Shown piece after piece: positions 20,896 to 44,379 of a DNA stretch of 64,000 nt. The stretch spans positions 44,087-108,086 of the IMG/VR virus record IMGVR_UViG_3300027744_000013; one strand, 5' to 3'. Numbering within the stretch: position 1 is the stretch's first letter; each line of letters starts with the position of its first letter. The position numbers and the translations under genes were made by a program. Source of the stretch: a virus. The notes under the pieces are model-generated. The model had not been told where the DNA came from, did no database searches, and worked only from the letters and a program-made list of their open reading frames with translations.

Positions 20896-21195
20896 ATGAA
20901 GACTTTATTAACAGCTTGTGTATTTGTAGCCGCTACTGGCACGTTATCAGCACAACCACGTACTCTAAACAAGCCAGTTGTGTGTGATGCAACTGAAAAG
21001 GTGTTCAAAACAATAGTAGAAGACTTTAAAGAAACTCCACAATGGCAAGGGCGTAACCCGCAACAAGGTACCAGCACAGTGCTGACAGTTAACTTGACTA
21101 CTGGTGCGTGGACTTTGATCGAATACACTGATATAACAGCCTGTGTGATTGGTGTGGGTGAGAACAGTTCCTCAGCATGGGGAATCCCCATCTAA
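20896..21195 (+). CDS. Exported small protein
   Basis: Signal peptide, 2 Cys in the mature part, TAAATA 4 nt upstream. Confidence 0.65.
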   Translation: MKTLLTACVFVAATGTLSAQPRTLNKPVVCDATEKVFKTIVEDFKETPQWQGRNPQQGTSTVLTVNLTTGAWTLIEYTDITACVIGVGENSSSAWGIPI

Positions 21196-21211
21196 ATATC
21201 CATATATAAAC

Positions 21212-21637
21212 ATGCATGAAGCCAGCACTCCCATGATACGTCAACTATTGGTTGAGTGCTGTGATCGACAGGGTTGGCAATTGCCAGAAGACATAGTTAA
21301 CTACTGCACTATGGTACTGGCAGATCATGTGGCCAAACCCAATTGGCAACCAAAACCCAGTTATGCAGAACAATTTATGACTGTGCGCACTGTTGAGCAG
21401 TATATCAGTTTGGGTAACGAATGCTGGTTCACTAGGGCTGTATTTCCGGAGTTGATGATCAAGCGTGGTATTAACAGTAGCTACTATGTGGACATGGGCA
21501 TGGCCTGCTTTGATCAAGTGTTGACAAAAACTGCACATCCCACTGTGCGTAAGATCAGAGATCACTTTGAATTCACTGCTGAAGTAGCGTGGACAGCTAT
21601 ACACGCCAGGGATGGCTTTCGTAGCATGTGGGATTAA
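21212..21637 (+). CDS. Hypothetical protein
   Basis: ORF downstream of TAAATA at 21193. Confidence 0.6.
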   Translation: MHEASTPMIRQLLVECCDRQGWQLPEDIVNYCTMVLADHVAKPNWQPKPSYAEQFMTVRTVEQYISLGNECWFTRAVFPELMIKRGINSSYYVDMGMACFDQVLTKTAHPTVRKIRDHFEFTAEVAWTAIHARDGFRSMWD

Positions 21638-21669
21638 TTCAGTATGAGAAATTACTTCATAAATATAAT

Positions 21670-22197
21670 ATGCGAATAATAGAAATTGTAGAAACAATAG
21701 GGCCACACAATAACAAAGAGCTGGCATTGATGATCCAAGGTACAAAACCTGCGGCGTTAGTGTTTGATACTGAGTTGACCAAATGGAAGCCTTATATAGA
21801 CAAGTTTAAATGGACAGTGACTTCATTTAAAGACTTTAACGGTGGTGTTAGCTATGCTGTTAGTAAAGATCCAAACGGTGCTAAACAGATAGTACAGTTG
21901 TTTCAAACAGCCACAACAAGCAAAGTGGGTCCAGAGTTTCATGCACAGTTAGGACGCTTATTAGGCTACAGTGAAAAGGACATTGCTGAGTTTCTAGCAC
22001 AAAAGACCAGCACTGGTATACTGGGCAGTACAGGTAGGATCTTGGGTCAGTTGGGTCGTAGCATGTTGAGTGCTGTTAAAGTAGTAGGTGGCGCTGCCGC
22101 TACATTGGCAACATATAGTCCGGGACTTAACAGTGGGGAAGATGAAGAACTGGCACGTATACGGGCACAAGGTCCTAGAATTACACCTAGACAATAG
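21670..22197 (+). CDS. Putative head-packaged protein
   Basis: TAAATA-4-ATG, N-terminus MRIIEIVE, GRLLGY motif. Confidence 0.6.
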   Translation: MRIIEIVETIGPHNNKELALMIQGTKPAALVFDTELTKWKPYIDKFKWTVTSFKDFNGGVSYAVSKDPNGAKQIVQLFQTATTSKVGPEFHAQLGRLLGYSEKDIAEFLAQKTSTGILGSTGRILGQLGRSMLSAVKVVGGAAATLATYSPGLNSGEDEELARIRAQGPRITPRQ

Positions 22198-22392
22198 GAC
22201 CCGAAATGGGTCCTTGCTCCGCAGTTTGGGCCCGCGCAAAAAATTATAAAGAAGTACTTACAGATTCACCCTGGTGATTTTGCACCTATGGTGGTGAAAA
22301 AAGGCATGCGCTGTTGCTATAAAACAACAGTTGTAAATGTATATGCCCCGACCCCCACCCTGCCTCAAATACCATATCCCCACCGGTCGGTC

Positions 22393-22570
22393 AAAAAAAA
22401 GCCCCAACAACCGGGAGCGAATCGGATTTATATTGGGGCTTCAAGAACCCTTGCCGTTTGGACTTGGATTCTTCCTACTGACTGCTTGCCGGGAGCGAAT
22501 CGTTGGGCAGTCTACTACACGTACAGCTAGCACTCTACGGCGCTATGCTGTACCCGCATACATGCTAGCC
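22393..22570 (-). ncRNA. Candidate structured sRNA / 3'UTR with two anti-RBS loops, ending in an intrinsic terminator
   Basis: Four hairpins, two loops AUUCGCUCC, terminal stem AAGCCCCAA/UUGGGGCUU plus U8. Confidence 0.6.
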
Positions 22571-22571
22571 C

Positions 22572-23444
22572 TTAGGCGTTGCGCATACACGTTACTTCTA
22601 CCACAGCCCGCCACTTGGCAGGCATACTTACTCGGATGTCCGCTACCTTGAGCACCATACGCAGGCTCAGCTCACGCATACGATCAGCGTTGGCATTGAC
22701 AAACTCCACGCACTCGGCCTTGGCTTCATCAGTCAAATCGTATGCATCCAACATGCCCGCATCACGTACTACCTGTTTGATACGCAACAGCTTCTCACGT
22801 TGTGTGTCAATGGTCAAGTCCAAGTAGTGACAGCGTGACTCTAATGCTTCAAGGTGATCGCGTAGCTTCTTGCTACGCACGTGATCGAACTTGATGTTGG
22901 TAATGAAGATCGCACCACCCTTGAACTCGAATGAGTTAGGCATGCCTTCTTGCTGTAAGCTACGGCTGTCCGTGTTCCAGCAAATCATACGCTTCTTGCC
23001 CGAATCCAGTGCGGCTTTGAGAATGTTCAAGCTCAAGTCATCTAACAGTACTGAGTCACAGTCATCGAACACCAATATGGATTTCTTGTCTGAGAACTCG
23101 TACAGCTTCTTGTACAGGCCAATGGCACTCATAGCGCCTTTGACCACTTCGTACTTCTTCAGCTTTGAGTCATTGGCTACATCAGCGAACACATCGTGCT
23201 TGCTCAGTACCTTCTCTACACCAAAGCTCTTGCCCACGCCTGGAGGGCCTGTAACGATCATTGATCTAACATCGCCCTTTTTCACTGCACGGGTCATGTC
23301 TTCCAGGATCTCAAAGCGATCAGCCAAACGTTGCATGATCTCTTCATCTGTTTCTGTTAGTACTTTGTTCACGGGCTCTTGTGCCAATGATTTGGATTCT
23401 GCTGTGTCTTTAGCTAGACTCAATGCTGTATGTACCTTTGCCAT
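22572..23444 (-). CDS. AAA-family P-loop ATPase
   Basis: GPPGVGKS, LVFDDCD, FITN, ALESR. Confidence 0.85.
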   Translation of the reverse strand: MAKVHTALSLAKDTAESKSLAQEPVNKVLTETDEEIMQRLADRFEILEDMTRAVKKGDVRSMIVTGPPGVGKSFGVEKVLSKHDVFADVANDSKLKKYEVVKGAMSAIGLYKKLYEFSDKKSILVFDDCDSVLLDDLSLNILKAALDSGKKRMICWNTDSRSLQQEGMPNSFEFKGGAIFITNIKFDHVRSKKLRDHLEALESRCHYLDLTIDTQREKLLRIKQVVRDAGMLDAYDLTDEAKAECVEFVNANADRMRELSLRMVLKVADIRVSMPAKWRAVVEVTCMRNA

Positions 23445-23523
23445 CTATCGCTCCTTTGTTACGCTGTTAAAGAATTAATTATATAGTCAAGGGCACTGAT
23501 AGTCAATGCCCTTTGGTATGCAA

Positions 23524-23850
23524 TTAGTCCAATCTGCTACCACTGTATGCATTCAAACCCAATGCACGGAGGTACTCTGCGTAGGCATCTGCACCCGCTT
23601 CTTTGATGTCTATGTTCTGCACGGGCAGGTTGCCTGGGTTCCACATGCTAAGGCATTTGGGTTTGTAGTCCTTCTTGAACCCTGCGGCAATCAGCTCTTT
23701 GGCCTGCGCAGAGTTGGTGCGATCAACGAACACGTCTACCCAAGCAAAGCCACATGCGAATGCATCCTTACGGCCCATCTTGTCGTACATGGCAATGCTT
23801 GCCTGTTCTGCTAGTGTCTTACCGCTACGGATCTGTTCTGCTGTAATCAT
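23524..23850 (-). CDS. Early hypothetical protein (CGFAWV motif)
   Basis: Own promoter and GGAGCGAA RBS. Confidence 0.75.
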   Translation of the reverse strand: MITAEQIRSGKTLAEQASIAMYDKMGRKDAFACGFAWVDVFVDRTNSAQAKELIAAGFKKDYKPKCLSMWNPGNLPVQNIDIKEAGADAYAEYLRALGLNAYSGSRLD

Positions 23851-23893
23851 AAGTTTCGCTCCTTATTTGTTTGTGTAAGTGTATATTATACGA

Positions 23894-24181
23894 TCAAGCC
23901 AGCTCTTTGTCAACCACGGTTAACATGTTAGCAGGCACTCTCCAGAGGCCCTGACCGGTGTTGACTGTTACATATTTAATGGCAATCTTGGTAACGAAGC
24001 CACGTGTGAGTCGTCCGGTCTTGCCGGACGTGAACTCCACGTTATCGCCAACTGACATGCTACGTTTGATCTGTTTGGCTAGGTTAGCCCTGTTCCATTT
24101 GACCGCATCGATCATGCTACGAAGTTCGATGTCTGTCCAAGTGCCCAACATGATTGCGGTGTTGACTTGTTTGATATCCAT
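23894..24181 (-). CDS. Early hypothetical protein, SH3-like C-terminus
   Basis: Own promoter/RBS; VGDNVEF..G.V....WRV. Confidence 0.7.
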   Translation of the reverse strand: MDIKQVNTAIMLGTWTDIELRSMIDAVKWNRANLAKQIKRSMSVGDNVEFTSGKTGRLTRGFVTKIAIKYVTVNTGQGLWRVPANMLTVVDKELA

Positions 24182-24216
24182 TAAGTTCGCTCCTTATTGT
24201 TTAAGTAGTTATTATA

Positions 24217-24360
24217 TTACCAAAGCGTGGGGTTGTCAACCAGCTTCTTCCTGTTGTGAGCAATGATGCCTTCTTCAATGAACAGGGCCACGGCTAGGAT
24301 CGCCAGGAAGATCCACAAGGGCATGGTGTAGTAGAATGCGTAGAGGATAGCGTCGATCAT
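24217..24360 (-). CDS. 47-aa membrane peptide
   Basis: MIDAILYAF..LVDNPTLW; coupled to upstream ORF; not in the ORF track. Confidence 0.55.
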   Translation of the reverse strand: MIDAILYAFYYTMPLWIFLAILAVALFIEEGIIAHNRKKLVDNPTLW

Positions 24361-24554
24361 TGTGCGAACACCTCTTTGCTTAGGATTTCGTCTTCAACGA
24401 TCTGGTTGCAGGCGTTGAGTGTCAATTGCATGATTTGGTATGCTGTGGCCTTGGCCTCTACTGGCATGCACTCGATGTAGTCCTGAATCTCCGCTAGTGT
24501 GCGGGTTGCAAACAGACCGCTACAGGGAATTGGGTTATTGATGATATTGTACAT
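24357..24554 (-). CDS. Early hypothetical protein
   Basis: Own promoter/RBS. Confidence 0.7.
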   Translation of the reverse strand: MYNIINNPIPCSGLFATRTLAEIQDYIECMPVEAKATAYQIMQLTLNACNQIVEDEILSKEVFAQ

Positions 24555-24610
24555 TAGGTTCGCTCCTTAGTGTGTTTAAGTGTTTATTATACTGCCTTTT
24601 GGGCAGGGCG

Positions 24611-24772
24611 TCAACCTTGCAGATAGCAAGAATGTATAGTGCATCTGGACCCGTACTGGGCTTGGATCATAGCCTTGGCCCTGAAGTCATCGAATGCTGT
24701 GACCTGCGTGGTCACCCACTGTAGGCTACTGTCCGCACCTTCAACGCTGAATGTCACTTCGAATAGTCTCAT
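24611..24772 (-). CDS. 53-aa hypothetical protein
   Basis: MRLFEVTF..; TAATG coupling; not in the ORF track. Confidence 0.55.
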   Translation of the reverse strand: MRLFEVTFSVEGADSSLQWVTTQVTAFDDFRAKAMIQAQYGSRCTIHSCYLQG

Positions 24773-25038
24773 TACATGCTCCAATAGAGTTCGCTGGATG
24801 GGTCACATGAGCGCGGTGTATCATGTGGAATCTGTATGTCCTTGCCACTCATCAAGTTCTTCACAGTCTTCATTGTGGGGAACGCTTCTGCTCTAAAGCC
24901 CTGACCGCTGACTTCCTTGCACTCGCGAGCCATGCTGGCCTCATCTCTGTCTTGCCAAACTGTAGTTGATACAAGACGTTCACCGGTCTTCTTACGACGG
25001 TCCGTCTTGTAGATGTACATGGTGTAATCTTGTTTCAT
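24772..25038 (-). CDS. Early hypothetical protein
   Basis: Own promoter/RBS; ends CDPSSELYWSM. Confidence 0.7.
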   Translation of the reverse strand: MKQDYTMYIYKTDRRKKTGERLVSTTVWQDRDEASMARECKEVSGQGFRAEAFPTMKTVKNLMSGKDIQIPHDTPRSCDPSSELYWSM

Positions 25039-25082
25039 AAGTTTCGCTCCTTATTGTGTCTGTATGTTAGTATTATAAGGCC

Positions 25083-25787
25083 TTAAGCCACTTCTGTCAA
25101 TCGGATTACGAAGCCACTGTAGTCCTTCTTTGCACGACCTTTGGCCTTCAAACCAAGCATGATGCCCTTAGGGTCCAAAAAGCGCAAATCAGTTTCGTCT
25201 GCACTGGGTACGCCTGCGGGGATCTTGTCGTAGACCGCAACCACTGACATGCCTTGCAAGAGCGCATCTGCAACATCCGAATCATTGCCGTCAGCCTTGC
25301 TGAAGGTCAAGTGGTAGTTGGCTAGGTGCTTGACCTTACGACCCAGGACCTTGGTGTAGTCGTAGAACTGAACAAAGGAGAAGTATTCAAAGATGTTCTG
25401 TCCTGTGCTGGCTACCTTGTACTTCTCCCAGCTCAAGTCTGACGTGCCGTTTAAACGAAACACTGGAGTCAAGCCCTTGCGTTCTGCGAACTTGATGGCC
25501 TTAGTGATGTCGTTAACCAAGTCCTGCATGAAGCCTTCACGGTTGTCAAAGAAGTATTGTGTCTTGCGGATGCGAGCCTTTTGGATCATGTTGGTGTTCT
25601 CACCCTTCTTGAACATGCCACCACGTCCTGCGGTGTTAAGGCATGCGGCAATGCAACCCTTTGTGGCCTTTGGGCAAGTGTTCTTGCCTGACAAGTCGCT
25701 GGGTGCAAGGTGCAGGATAAAGCTGAGATAGCCCATCTTAGTACCCTTTTGGATCTTAGGATTGGCAGTGCTGAGTAATTTAAACAT
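25083..25787 (-). CDS. Gp88-like protein with Cys-triad (radical-SAM-like) motif
   Basis: CPKATKGCIAACL, RLNGTSD, FYDYTK. Confidence 0.7.
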   Translation of the reverse strand: MFKLLSTANPKIQKGTKMGYLSFILHLAPSDLSGKNTCPKATKGCIAACLNTAGRGGMFKKGENTNMIQKARIRKTQYFFDNREGFMQDLVNDITKAIKFAERKGLTPVFRLNGTSDLSWEKYKVASTGQNIFEYFSFVQFYDYTKVLGRKVKHLANYHLTFSKADGNDSDVADALLQGMSVVAVYDKIPAGVPSADETDLRFLDPKGIMLGLKAKGRAKKDYSGFVIRLTEVA

Positions 25788-25853
25788 TGTTTTCGCTCCA
25801 GTGTTTGTTTGTATGTAAGTATTATAGCAGGATTGGGCCCACCTGTCAACCGA

Positions 25854-26820: not shown

Positions 26821-26895
26821 TGGTCCGGCGTAACGGAATCGAACCGCTATTTAGGGAGTAGAAATCCCCTGTATTATCCATTATACGAACGCCAG
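26821..26895 (-). tRNA. tRNA-Arg(TCT)
   Basis: Acceptor CTGGCGT/ACGCCGG, anticodon stem GGGGA/TCCCT with loop TTTCTAC, GGTTCGATTCC, encoded CCA. Confidence 0.88.
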
Positions 26896-26896
26896 A

Positions 26897-26975
26897 TGGT
26901 AGGCCCTCCCAGAGTCGAACTGGGCACCAATGGATTATGAGTCCACTGCTCTAACCAAGCATGAGCTAAGGGCCT
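26897..26975 (-). tRNA. tRNA with CAT anticodon (Ile2-like or Met)
   Basis: Acceptor AGGCCCT/AGGGCCT, loop CTCATAA, T-loop TTCGACT, CCA; resembles bacterial tRNA-Ile2. Confidence 0.88.
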
Positions 26976-28870: not shown

Positions 28871-29137
28871 TTAGACTCCCATTTCGTAAAAGGTTACTGA
28901 AGGATCAATGCTGAGCAGTTCTTCTGCACAACGGCTAAGGAACTTAACTCTGCGGCTTACTTCTGCACGGGGCAGTTCGCCATCGCATGTTAGGTTCTCT
29001 GGGCTCATGTCGCTGTCAATGCGATCTGCAATCTTTTGACGATCAGCGGCGTTGAGCAGGCTGAGTGGCTTGTTGCCAAACAAGGCACCCCATCGATTGA
29101 TACCATCTACATACTGTTCTATGGTTGCTATGTTCAT
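28871..29137 (-). CDS. Early hypothetical protein (SPENLTCDGE)
   Basis: Own promoter/RBS. Confidence 0.7.
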   Translation of the reverse strand: MNIATIEQYVDGINRWGALFGNKPLSLLNAADRQKIADRIDSDMSPENLTCDGELPRAEVSRRVKFLSRCAEELLSIDPSVTFYEMGV

Positions 29138-29200
29138 AAGTTTCGCTCCTTATCTGTTTGTGTAAGTGTATATTATACTGCCAACTACCCAACTTGTCAA

Positions 29201-30958: not shown

Positions 30959-31171
30959 TCAATCAGCCCAGCATTCCGTGGCCAAGCGTGTGGTTATTGT
31001 TTCACCACCAATGTAGTCACCTGAGAAGCCATGCTTGTTCTCCAGCACAAGAGCCACGCCAGCATAAGTCTTCTTGATCTCTATGATCTTGGCCCATTGC
31101 TCGATGTCGCTCTTGAAGGCCACGTTGTCGCCTACCTTAACTTCTACATCATGTACCATGCAAGTCTTCAT
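30959..31171 (-). CDS. Early hypothetical protein
   Basis: Own promoter/RBS. Confidence 0.7.
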   Translation of the reverse strand: MKTCMVHDVEVKVGDNVAFKSDIEQWAKIIEIKKTYAGVALVLENKHGFSGDYIGGETITTRLATECWAD

Positions 31172-31236
31172 AGTTCGCTCCTAGTGTGTTTGTGTATGTG
31201 TTAATTATAACAGGGAACCCAGTCCCTGTCAACCAA

Positions 31237-31475: not shown

Positions 31476-31724
31476 TCAAGCCCACTCTGTCAACTGGACG
31501 TCAGCAATAACCCTACTGCCTGTATGGGTAAGGAATACCTTAGTGCTGTCAGAACCGCCCTTGCACAGGAAGACTGCCATGTAGCAGAACTGCCCACCGT
31601 TGGTGATGCCCAGGAACTTGCATGAGCTGAACGCAGGGCCCTTGTAGCCCGCATCCTTGGCCGCCCGGGTTAGGGCTGGTGCTGAGAAGCTGATAAGGGT
31701 CTTAAGTGTGTCAGGTGTGATCAT
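31476..31724 (-). CDS. Hypothetical protein
   Basis: ATGA coupling. Confidence 0.6.
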   Translation of the reverse strand: MITPDTLKTLISFSAPALTRAAKDAGYKGPAFSSCKFLGITNGGQFCYMAVFLCKGGSDSTKVFLTHTGSRVIADVQLTEWA

Positions 31725-31969
31725 GCCAGCACCACTACCTTTCTAACGTCTGTACGCAAGTCGCCAGTCTCTTTATCAAACTGGTCCTCGTACTCCCCTA
31801 CCATCTTGTCCATGCGGTGGTACTCACTGTACTCCACTACACCCTCGTCAACCCTATCAATCTTAGGGGCTACTTCTGTGCGCCAGTGGTCGCCGTAGCA
31901 GTAGCTGAAGTGGACCTCTGCGTCCTGATCCATATACTTGAGGGATTCGATAAGTTCTTTGACTAGCAT
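31721..31969 (-). CDS. Early hypothetical protein
   Basis: Own promoter/RBS. Confidence 0.7.
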   Translation of the reverse strand: MLVKELIESLKYMDQDAEVHFSYCYGDHWRTEVAPKIDRVDEGVVEYSEYHRMDKMVGEYEDQFDKETGDLRTDVRKVVVLA

Positions 31970-32019
31970 AGTTTCGCTCCTATTGCGTTGTTGATGTATG
32001 TATTATAACGCCTTTTGGG

Positions 32020-32286
32020 TTAGGCGTCAACCGCTTCTTTAAAATAGACAACTTTGATTGTGCCTTTTGCACGATCTTCTACGAACACGTATTCTGCACT
32101 TTCGTTAAAATTAGCACGTGGATCGCTTAGGACCTTCTTAGTCATAATCTTAACACTGCGCACACTAACAGAACCCTGCCAGTCTTCGTGGGCCACGTTT
32201 TCGTTGTAGCTGTATTTGCCGAGGCATCCGCACATACAACCGATCTTGCCCGAATATACTTTGGCCACTTTGCTGATGTCTAACAT
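32020..32286 (-). CDS. Early protein with GCMCGC motif
   Basis: Own promoter/RBS; start MLDISK. Confidence 0.7.
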   Translation of the reverse strand: MLDISKVAKVYSGKIGCMCGCLGKYSYNENVAHEDWQGSVSVRSVKIMTKKVLSDPRANFNESAEYVFVEDRAKGTIKVVYFKEAVDA

Positions 32287-32381
32287 AGTTTCGCTCCTAA
32301 TGTTTGTTTGTATGTGTGTATTATAGCACTGTTTGGGCAAAGCGTCAACCGCGTTAAAAAAAGCCCCTAAGGGCTGTAGGG

Positions 32382-32922: not shown

Positions 32923-33132
32923 TTAATAAAAAAGGCCTAGTACATATAGAGCGAGCAGTACTCCGTTAACAATAATTAAATTAGTTTCCTTAATGCGCAC
33001 AGCCCAAATCAAGTACAGTAGGGCCCCCGCATTTAGAAAGTATATGTTAAGGGGGTCTATGCGCAGGCTAGTAAACAGGGCCCCTGCTAGCACTGTAGCG
33101 CACCCTGCCCATTTTAGTATGTTGTTTAACAT
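32923..33132 (-). CDS. Small membrane protein (about 3 TM segments)
   Basis: Hydrophobic; TAATG coupling. Confidence 0.7.
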   Translation of the reverse strand: MLNNILKWAGCATVLAGALFTSLRIDPLNIYFLNAGALLYLIWAVRIKETNLIIVNGVLLALYVLGLFY

Positions 33133-33509
33133 TACAGTTCCATGCTCGCATAGCCGTCGTCTTGCATACCCTGCTCTGTAAACATAACGTCTGTACCTAG
33201 CAGTGTGCTAATCGCATCTACAAAACCGCTGTCTGTGTACAGTCTCCAGCTGTCCTCGTACTCCGCATCGCCGTTAACCGTGTAGCACACTGCAATGTGT
33301 ATGCTACTGTCGCCGTCCAATTCGTCCCACCATGTCTCGTGTATGTGTATGCTTGTAACTGTAACTGCCTCAATCTCGCAGTCCCATATACTGTCACCTG
33401 CAAGTTGCACCTCTACGTTGCAGTCGTATGTTGTACTAATACTGTCTGTGTTAGTCTCTGTACTTGCCAGTGTCAGCTTGTTGCTAACTTCAAATTGTGT
33501 TGCTTGCAT
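33132..33509 (-). CDS. Acidic early protein (YTDSGF..TEQGMQ)
   Basis: Own promoter/RBS. Confidence 0.7.
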   Translation of the reverse strand: MQATQFEVSNKLTLASTETNTDSISTTYDCNVEVQLAGDSIWDCEIEAVTVTSIHIHETWWDELDGDSSIHIAVCYTVNGDAEYEDSWRLYTDSGFVDAISTLLGTDVMFTEQGMQDDGYASMEL

Positions 33510-33549
33510 AGTTTTCGCTCCTAATGCTTGTTAAAAATTAATTATACAC

Positions 33550-33706: not shown

Positions 33707-33925
33707 TTACGCTCCTTCTGTGTAAGTATAACCCACTTCGCCTGCTAGTGCGCAGTCCATCCACTCCTCAAAGCAGTCCTCTGCGTACTCCTCTTCCCAA
33801 ATTAGTATTTCGTCACAGCTAGCAATCTCCTTGCCGCGTTGTAGCGTTACCTTTACAGTACTACCGCTAGCATATTCGCTAGTGTAATAGCCTGCCGCTT
33901 CTATGTTTACTACTTTTACTTTCAT
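33707..33925 (-). CDS. Early acidic protein
   Basis: Own promoter/RBS. Confidence 0.65.
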   Translation of the reverse strand: MKVKVVNIEAAGYYTSEYASGSTVKVTLQRGKEIASCDEILIWEEEYAEDCFEEWMDCALAGEVGYTYTEGA

Positions 33926-34002
33926 TTCGCTCCTTTGTTGCTAAGTGTTAATTATAGCGCATTTAGCCAAAACTGTCAAATGCGCTATAAAGACCCTACA
34001 GT

Positions 34003-34355: not shown

Positions 34356-34676
34356 TCACAAGTACTGGTCGTTCAAGCTGGGCACTTGTTCCTTAACCAG
34401 TGCTCGTTCGTATGCATAGGCTTCCTTGCGTCCGCGTATGATTGCGAGAACCCGGTGTTCCCAAGCCCAATCCATAGCACCCATCTTCAAGTACTCGTAC
34501 AGGACCCAAGCCCTGTTTTCGTTACGGGCACGGCTGATATGCTTGCGCCACCGTTCCTTAACCACCTTGTTGACATTGGCCAGGCTCTTGCGTGTTAGGC
34601 CAATGTAGTTCTCGCCGTGCTCATCCGTCATTTCGTATATGATGTAGTTGCAGTCTACTCGGGTTTTACGTCTCAT
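34356..34676 (-). CDS. GIY-YIG nuclease-domain protein
   Basis: IIYEMT....NYIGLT..RWRKH..E...LN; first gene of the early array. Confidence 0.7.
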   Translation of the reverse strand: MRRKTRVDCNYIIYEMTDEHGENYIGLTRKSLANVNKVVKERWRKHISRARNENRAWVLYEYLKMGAMDWAWEHRVLAIIRGRKEAYAYERALVKEQVPSLNDQYL

Positions 34677-34777
34677 GGTTCGCTCCAATCTCTCAGTATC
34701 TTATTATAACATTTGGAACCCAAAGTGTCAACCGCCAAAAATACCCACACTCAGCCCAGGGTCTCTCTAAAAGCCGT

Positions 34778-44036: not shown

Positions 44037-44379
44037 TCAAGCCAGTAATGGCCCAATGGCCAGCCCAAAAGAAAAACGTGTAATTGATAAGTTTATGGTA
44101 TTTGGTGATCGGGTACACGAAATACACACAGTTATTGTACACCGATTTAGAATGGGCGATGTTGAAGATCCAGACTTGTATGCGGCTGAACCATTATTGG
44201 CTTGGCAACAAAGTGAAATGGGTGAATGGATAATGGAACGGGCTGTGGATACTCCAGAATGGCACCGAATGGCAGATGTTGCTAGTTACGGATACAAATA
44301 TGCTATTGTAGCCAAACTCAAAGATGTTGATTACACTTGGTGGACGCTCAAATGGGGCAACACTGTGATTGACATATAA
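44023..44379 (+). CDS. Hypothetical protein (DVEDPDLYAA; ends WTLKW)
   Basis: ORF; start uncertain. Confidence 0.6.
   Translation: MANYSQASNGPMASPKEKRVIDKFMVFGDRVHEIHTVIVHRFRMGDVEDPDLYAAEPLLAWQQSEMGEWIMERAVDTPEWHRMADVASYGYKYAIVAKLKDVDYTWWTLKWGNTVIDI

Follow-up and report, generated by a model that had tools for sequence, protein, structure and literature searches.

A conserved structured RNA behind a phage AAA-ATPase gene and its candidate pairing with tagged early ribosome-binding sites

We analysed a 64,000-nucleotide stretch of DNA of an uncultured giant phage from a lake (positions 44,087 to 108,086 of IMG/VR record IMGVR_UViG_3300027744_000013, hereafter the window), in which the minus strand at 22393-22571, directly behind the stop codon of an AAA-ATPase gene, is a conserved structured RNA. 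This 3' untranslated region (3'UTR) folds into four hairpins and ends in an intrinsic terminator. Two of the hairpins expose the loop A-UUCGCUCC, the complement of GGAGCGAA, which is a distinctive extended Shine-Dalgarno (SD) sequence that precedes 12 early genes on the same strand. Using comparison with viral relatives, we established the structure of this element, its conservation, its complementarity to the early ribosome-binding sites (RBSs) and the joint change of loop and RBS between clades. We propose that the AAA-ATPase mRNA probably carries an anti-SD module, which would pair with the tagged early ribosome sites, including that of the AAA-ATPase gene itself.

A structured RNA behind the AAA-ATPase gene

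Exact copies of the 14-mer CCGGGAGCGAATCG lie at 22411 and 22489, and both contain a reversed GGAGCGAA (at 22414 and 22492), that is, a plus-strand copy where the minus strand reads UUCGCUCC. On the minus strand, each 14-mer lies at the tip of a hairpin, with stems at 22399-22407/22433-22441 and 22480-22485/22507-22512 and a 9-nucleotide (nt) loop, and the last hairpin is followed by U8. The coordinates of these parts in the preliminary description, a reading of the letters made without database searches, were exact. As in an intrinsic terminator, a G+C-rich hairpin is directly followed by a U-tract (22398-22442 plus U8, minus strand); an alternative short terminator fold, which pairs GCUCC with GGGGC, is peculiar to the window's own stem. 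The predicted unpaired probability of the loop in the second hairpin is 0.94 with 300 nt of open reading frame (ORF) context and 0.42 in the 3'UTR alone. A search of Rfam over 22150-22650 with E up to 10 gave zero matching families. The parts of the element, its gene and the signals in front of that gene are listed here.

22393-22571, minus strand: 3'UTR of the AAA-ATPase mRNA, with four hairpins, two of them with anti-SD loops, and an intrinsic terminator at the end (fold z-score -2.66)
22516-22558, minus strand: hairpin 1, loop CGUAGA, no anti-SD loop (relatives have a hairpin in the same position, with loop CNCUAAGA)
22480-22512, minus strand: hairpin 2, with variable outer stem GACUGC/GCAGUC and invariant core CCAACG-A-UUCGCUCC-CGGCAA (compensatory changes at 8 of 8 outer pairs)
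22492-22500, minus strand: loop 1, A-UUCGCUCC, in hairpin 2, complement of GGAGCGAA(U)
22443-22473, minus strand: hairpin 3, no anti-SD loop, core CCAAG...CGGCAAGG resembling a degenerate copy of hairpin 2
22398-22442, minus strand: hairpin 4, the terminator hairpin, with inner helix CCG/CGG and the second anti-SD loop
22414-22422, minus strand: loop 2, A-UUCGCUCC (predicted unpaired probability 0.98)
22393-22400, minus strand: U8 tract of the intrinsic terminator
22572-23444, minus strand: AAA ATPase gene (290 amino acids; phrog_1250, PF13191), whose mRNA bears the hairpin element
23448-23454, minus strand: RBS of the AAA gene, GGAGCGA(U), with a 7-nt match to the loops (duplex -12.4 kcal/mol)
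23478-23506, minus strand: promoter of the AAA gene, sigma-70 type, TTGACT-17-TATAAT (11 of 12 consensus positions)

Conservation was examined in 80 fetched viral contigs (L001-L080), whose AAA proteins are 71-90% identical to that of the window. The loop was present in all 80 of these relatives, in one to three copies of TTCGCTCC within about 170 nt downstream of the AAA stop. The stems of the loop hairpins differ entirely between phages, with 57 distinct versions of the terminator hairpin, and in the relatives with downstream sequence a U-rich tract (mostly U7-9, in a few cases C-interrupted) follows the last hairpin. Across 139 distinct hairpins, the loop is fixed and the closing triplets co-vary (CCG/CGG, GUG/CAC, CUG/CAG, UCG/CGA, GCG/CGC and CCA/UGG). 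An ungapped alignment of 31 sequences of the commonest inner-hairpin type showed compensatory changes at all 8 outer pairs, with 91% of the cells paired compared with 27-38% when the partner columns were slid. Its covariation score was 0.59 versus 0.18 in shuffles (0 of 500 shuffles as high), and its central 21 nt were invariant. For the terminator hairpins, MAFFT with RNAalifold gave only a 3-base-pair (bp) inner helix; because stem lengths differ among these hairpins, per-sequence folds and the ungapped subset were used. Divergent clade members vary in the 5' part of the loop (ACUCGCUCC, CUAGGCUCC) and retain GCUCC, which mirrors the gradient in the RBSs, where GGAGC is kept and the rest is looser. 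Hairpin 1 also keeps its position in L002, L004, L067, L068, L075, L078 and L080, with loop CNCUAAGA in most of them.

Comparison among relatives clearly indicates that the element is oriented in AAA sense (minus strand), since the U-tract and the position right after the AAA stop fix the orientation in every relative. The first hairpin often starts on the AAA stop codon or no more than a few bases from it, and in some relatives it overlaps the stop codon. Folding of both strands, as the preliminary description had suggested, recovered the four minus-strand hairpins with their z-score of -2.66, but the energy favours the opposite strand for 85 of 138 hairpins. Energy fails to separate the strands because A/C-rich internal loops turn into G-U pairs on the opposite strand. 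The earlier argument that G-U pairs favour the minus strand holds modestly when pairs inside helices are counted, although folding energy leaves it undecided. The AAA-sense helices have 93 stacked G-U pairs and 5 A-C mismatches, versus 76 and 18 on the opposite strand, and the six well-defined pairs of the aligned inner hairpin have 5 G-U and 0 A-C cells. RNA-library contigs from three studies, a weak support for the proposed module, span the 3' part of the AAA ORF through hairpin 2, which speaks for presence in the libraries only. In three runs, the longest listed contigs end at 22452, 22463 and 22483 (two with adapter letters), short of the terminator hairpin, and one divergent RNA-library contig (X7) bridges 21933-22680.

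What the element goes with is the AAA gene and not the end of the gene array. Convergent gene blocks flank the interval 22198-22571, where the plus-strand genes stop at 22197 and a minus-strand array of small genes starts with the AAA-ATPase gene. The preliminary description had interpreted the element as an RNA timer produced at the far end of the early array. This reading did not hold, first because the AAA gene has its own early promoter (23506-23478), so that the element is made along with the other early units. Second, in L061, L143, L146 and L152 the same-strand sequence beyond the terminator holds additional early promoter cassettes; in several relatives, such a same-direction cassette is the next downstream unit, without convergent transcription.

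Some further observations concern the locus and its distant relatives. Just beyond the terminator, most of the 80 relatives have G-rich boxes like GGTCGGGGCATATACA and then a CTGTTG...CAACAG hairpin; in the window, this region (22300-22392, plus strand) reads ...CAACAGTTGTAAATGTATATGCCCCGACCCCC. These boxes and hairpin may mark where the convergent plus-strand unit ends, or act as a promoter. AAA-protein relatives in T4-like Aeromonas phages are annotated nrdC.10. Megablast of 21000-25000 against cultured phages gave zero matches. The nearest cultured homologues, the PA5oct group (49% identity), have the gene fused and placed differently and were uninformative for the element. In Pseudomonas phage PA5oct itself (L089 40-658, record 246116-246734), an RNA-seq-based 'putative lncRNA' (long non-coding RNA) is annotated about 2 kb upstream of the AAA-thioredoxin fusion gene. 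Scans of viral and genome collections for the exact 14-mer gave mostly single matches, near the chance level for the collection size, and were uninformative on hosts.

Tagged early ribosome-binding sites

The octamer GGAGCGAA has 15 matches in the window compared with 0.91 expected, and 0 of 100 shuffles reached 15. The contig is a 108-kb fragment of a viral genome estimated to be 29% complete, and every copy in it (15) falls within the window, none outside. Twelve minus-strand copies lie 0-5 nt upstream of an ATG and 17-22 nt downstream of a TTGACA-17-TATAAT promoter, and they confirm all the early-gene RBSs listed in the preliminary description, at the same coordinates. The 7-mer match it reported at the AAA gene was likewise found, as GGAGCGAU, which is complementary to the loop UUCGCUCC at 7 of 8 positions. 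The 12 tagged sites are as follows.

23855-23862, minus strand: tagged RBS GGAGCGAA of gene 23524-23850
24186-24193, minus strand: tagged RBS of gene 23894-24181
24559-24566, minus strand: tagged RBS of gene 24357-24554
25043-25050, minus strand: tagged RBS of gene 24772-25038
25792-25799, minus strand: tagged RBS of gene 25083-25787
29142-29149, minus strand: tagged RBS of gene 28871-29137
31174-31181, minus strand: tagged RBS of gene 30959-31171
31973-31980, minus strand: tagged RBS of gene 31721-31969
32290-32297, minus strand: tagged RBS of the gene starting at 32285
33514-33521, minus strand: tagged RBS of gene 33132-33509
33926-33933, minus strand: tagged RBS of gene 33707-33925
34679-34686, minus strand: tagged RBS of the gene starting at 34674

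Between 23478 and 34760, the minus strand has at least 13 TTGACA-17-TATAAT promoters close to the consensus; each is followed by a CA-rich leader of 10-16 nt and drives one or a few small genes, a layout that recalls the promoter-early stem-loop modules of T4-type phages. Internal genes of the array, which have no promoter of their own, have other, untagged RBSs. In the relatives, the GGAGC(GAA) tag is kept on promoter-proximal early genes, and all relatives with early-gene sequence upstream of the AAA gene show GGAGCGAA before start codons on the same strand. Distinct promoter-plus-leader cassettes in the window and the 80 relatives number 414 on the AAA strand versus 9 on the opposite strand, and the exact GGAGCGAA is found in 44% of the 414. 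As to the AAA gene, its RBS is GGAGCGA(A/C/U) in 50 of 68 relatives and matches the loop at 8 of 8 positions in 26 of 68 (38%). Two other observations were made in this array. A second class of promoter-proximal leaders (31438, 32547 and 34261, minus strand) has AAGGAAAC / AAAGGAAAC in place of GGAGCGAA, and no loop complementary to AAGGAAAC was found in the window. Genes for tRNA-Arg(TCT) and tRNA-Met(CAT) lie back to back at 26821-26975 on the minus strand.

The composition of the tag suggests that it is read by something other than the ribosome. In 349 unique GGAG-bearing leaders, the positions following GGAG are C in 94%, G in 79%, A in 74% and A in 68%, and a G directly after GGAG, as in the canonical GGAGG, occurs in 0 of the 349. 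We take the C-G-A-A extension, which lies in the SD-to-ATG spacer, to be unable to pair with the 16S rRNA tail. Since it is conserved even so, another reader is needed, and the loop fits. The loop:tag duplex has a predicted energy of -12.4 to -13.3 kcal/mol at the 13 tagged sites, compared with -8.5 kcal/mol or weaker at untagged sites, and the duplex with the 16S anti-SD at tagged sites has -5.6 to -9.3 kcal/mol. The predicted unpaired probability of the tags averages 0.78. Many bacterial 16S rRNAs also have GGAGCGAA, in helix 24, which would make a host rRNA target conceivable; there it is base-paired in mature ribosomes.

Tag and loop also differ together between clades. Through a 58%-identical AAA protein, we reached 75 further loci and with them a sister clade, in which a hairpin with a co-varying stem and a CU-repeat loop lies directly after the AAA stop. 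Some sister subgroups combine CUCCUCC-type loops with GGAGGAG or GAGGAG tags and others combine CUCUCUCC-type loops with GGAGAGAG tags (7-8 nt complement), in both cases including the RBS of the AAA gene. When loops and RBSs were cross-matched, the RBS 8-mers of the window's clade fitted their own loops in 38% and sister loops in 0-1%; in the sister subgroup G2c, which has CUCUCUCC-rich loops, the own loops fitted in 24% and the window-clade loops in 0%. Of 35 distinct sister sequences, 25 have CTCC no more than 60 nt downstream of the AAA stop, compared with a background of 7% and with 5 of 35 for the control GGAG. The change of tag and loop together gives real support to the predicted pairing, from few events. 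The co-variation of loop and RBS proposed in the preliminary description was thus seen between clades, as about three states, but within the window's clade there was no coupling: the loop varies little there, and the variation that exists is uncoupled from the tags. For example, the loop variants in L152, L153 and L158 are matched by their own tags no further than GGAGC. The central claim of the preliminary description, that the minus-strand loops are an anti-SD for the distinctive early RBS, is supported by the presence of loop and tag in 80 of 80 relatives, the co-varying stems, the sister-clade change, the mostly open state predicted for loops and tags (for the first loop only with ORF context) and the duplex energies. 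As a separate observation, the distant AAA clades L103-L109, L120 and L163 have short motifs (UUGCUCCUUA, UUACUCCUAA or UGCUCCUCUCA) at or beside the stop codon, and an anti-SD-like sequence behind the AAA gene may be older than either loop type.

Proposed mechanism and alternative explanations

In the proposed mechanism, the loop would be an anti-SD matched to a private tag, in which C-G-A-A follows the SD core GGAG and reaches into the spacer. The tag lies in the short, unstructured, CA-rich leaders of the promoter-proximal early genes and of the AAA gene. Loop-to-SD pairing over 5-8 bp, with GCUCC:GGAGC as the invariant core, would compete with the 30S subunit at the tagged sites. By this competition, translation of the tagged class would presumably be damped or shut down and untagged genes would be spared; mRNA decay may be speeded as well. 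The module could act in trans, either while part of the whole mRNA or as a fragment released from the 3'UTR by putative processing. The location is that of 3'UTR-derived small RNAs (sRNAs) of the CpxQ and CcsR type, from the AAA stop (22572) to the shared terminator. A seed of their kind is also present, namely an invariant loop that is an 8-nt complement of 12 leaders, with both sides predicted to be accessible. Action in cis on the AAA mRNA would also be possible, in some balance with action in trans. If an early-made RNA is to bring about late shut-off, this could come from accumulation or stability of a processed 3' fragment, from its stoichiometry versus decaying early mRNAs, or from the help of a protein.

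Several points weigh against this proposal. First, the full 8-mer is borne by only about 44% of the promoter-proximal leaders, and the element and its supposed targets share expression from early promoters, which leaves a simple delayed shut-off unexplained. Second, the co-change of tag and loop amounts to only about three states between clades, CU-rich loops easily match purine-rich SDs, and a rare loop variant, AUCGCUCC (L003, L004, L044-46, L055 and L065), is not paired with GGAGCGAU tags on early genes or on the AAA gene. Third, conservation extends to the 21-nt core in which loop 1 lies (CCAACG...CGGYAA) and to the bulge in the terminator hairpin, and loop-only pairing needs neither; this hints at a structural role or at a protein partner. 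Together with the constant linkage to the AAA gene, it makes a protein partner of the anti-SD module plausible. Finally, RNA libraries can contain DNA, and their contigs give neither strand, ends nor level.

Among the alternatives, the one that survives best is pairing in cis only, in which the loops would pair solely with the SD of their own AAA mRNA and limit AAA-ATPase synthesis, and the tags on other genes would be a side effect of promoter-leader cassettes that the genes have in common. In every clade the element goes with the AAA gene, the AAA-gene RBS is of the GGAGCGA(A/C/U) form in most relatives as given above, and in the sister clade the RBS of the AAA gene follows the loop type. 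However, 12 other genes of the window match the loop at 8 of 8 positions and the AAA gene at only 7 of 8, and the exact 8-mer is no commoner on the AAA gene (38%) than on the other leaders (44%). Moreover, in some relatives extra anti-SD hairpins lie at a long distance from the AAA gene, in other parts of the early region (L016 at 319 and 348, L003, L019 and L025), and we consider an explanation by cis pairing alone unlikely.

Slightly less probable again is that the loop and its core are the site of a phage or host RNA-binding protein (e.g. the AAA ATPase, a chaperone or an RNase), which would act on mRNA stability or termination, with the RBS complementarity secondary or incidental. The invariance does reach past the loop into the inner helix and the internal-loop bases and, by analogy, the protein encoded by ccaF1, the gene upstream of the CcsR RNAs, binds and matures these RNAs (PMC8034643). 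On the other hand, a chance 8-nt complement to the commonest RBS 8-mer of the phage is very unlikely (estimated at about 3e-5 per random 9-mer), and the incidental match would have to recur with other sequences in the sister clade.

Quite improbable, in our judgement, is an ordinary terminator with 3'-end stabilizer hairpins, without regulation, whose loop is kept by common descent or gene conversion. In its favour, hairpin 4 is a classical intrinsic terminator, and tandem 3' hairpins commonly protect mRNAs. Down to AAA proteins of 71% identity, however, the stems are wholly turned over and the loop is letter-perfect, which points to selection on the loop itself.

Least probable of all is the alternative offered in the preliminary description, a CsrB-like plus-strand decoy whose GGAGCGAA loops titrate a factor that binds early RBSs, or else a role of the 8-mer as a double-stranded DNA operator: the plus-strand version folds at least equally well by energy and GGA-containing loops resemble CsrA/RsmA sites, but no U-tract follows the hairpins on the plus strand, the orientation to the AAA stop is fixed even where both flanking units run AAA-wise, the helix counts favour the AAA strand, the co-varying stems point to RNA and not to a double-stranded DNA site, and the distance from the -10 box to the tag varies (17-22 nt) with the tag remaining 0-5 nt from the ATG. 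As for a CsrB/RsmZ-type sponge, the minus-strand loops read AUUCGCUCC, GGA is found only on the opposite strand, without a terminator, and no Rfam match was obtained.

Relation to known systems and biological meaning

By architecture, the closest described system is cuckoo/CcsR. The cuckoo RNAs CcsR1-4 (alpha-r14, RF02344) of Alphaproteobacteria are described as 2-4 adjacent hairpins with highly variable stems and the same anti-SD-like loop (PMC4615179; PMC8034643). Similarly, the present element has neighbouring hairpins that share one loop on differing stems (two among four in the window and 1-3 in relatives), and the CUCCUCC loops of the sister clade resemble the cuckoo loop CCUCCUCCC. Unlike cuckoo, the loop of the window is A-UUCGCUCC and not CCUCCUCCC, and no match to RF02344 was obtained up to E = 10 over 22150-22650. 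The element described here is also phage-encoded, and its candidate targets bear a matching private SD extension. In the 5'-3'UTR pairing of icaR mRNA of Staphylococcus aureus, the 3'UTR has an anti-SD motif complementary to that mRNA's own SD (PMC3868564). The AAA mRNA has a comparable motif, since the AAA-gene RBS complements its own 3'UTR loops (7 of 8 positions here, 8 of 8 in 26 of 68 relatives). Unlike in icaR, the anti-SD is here in exposed hairpin loops and duplicated, at least 12 other mRNAs match it better, and the pairing is predicted. The C-rich-loop sRNAs of Firmicutes (S. aureus RNAIII and Rsa RNAs) are described as contacting the RBSs of several targets through a conserved C-rich loop motif (PMC4615179). 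In contrast to their UCCC motif and the generic SDs of host genes, the 8-nt loop described here fits a class-specific tag on the early genes of the phage itself.

Phage systems offer two further comparisons. The c4 RNA of P1/P7 (RF01695) and sar of P22 are phage antisense RNAs that block an RBS on an mRNA of the phage itself and have one or two targets (icd/ant); the transcript from which c4 RNA is cut also carries its target. The present element differs from them in being a 3'UTR with terminator and in having a candidate class of at least 12 leaders, and it gave no match to RF01695. The endoribonuclease RegB of T4 inactivates early mRNAs class-specifically via their GGAG SD sequences. RegB is a protein nuclease, whereas the module predicted here is RNA; a search for the RegB family (PF10715) in the 108-kb record, which covers an estimated 29% of the genome, gave no match, and the control genomes equally gave none. 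Text searches of the literature gave no relevant paper on these motifs or on phage anti-SD RNAs. By these comparisons, the element is a phage-borne variant with a private, apparently co-evolving tag on a whole gene class, and it stands outside the cuckoo and c4 families.

In a broader and more tentative proposal, a widespread family of uncultured giant aquatic phages might use a private 'SD code', in which a lineage-specific SD extension on promoter-proximal early genes is read by the loops of the AAA 3'UTR and not by the ribosome. Tag and loop would co-evolve in this code (GGAGCGAA/UUCGCUCC, GGAGGAG/CUCCUCC and GGAGAGAG/CUCUCUCC), and the result could be an RNA-only, class-specific switch of early translation, possibly assisted by the AAA ATPase, whose gene always lies upstream of the loops. 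Its parts are compact and self-contained: the loop has 9 nt, the tag has 8 nt and the promoters are of the sigma-70 type. If the pairing is real, these phages would label all genes of a temporal class with a private tag at the ribosome site, and a single small RNA module would control the class. Such control would correspond, in RNA, to T4 RegB and would be a natural analogue of orthogonal translation control as it has been engineered. Lake and marine metagenomes contain the family in abundance, with hundreds of viral contigs, at least 8000 metagenome AAA proteins (only near relatives, with at least 85% identity, among the matches listed) and RNA libraries of many studies, and the mechanism, if real, would therefore be ecologically widespread.

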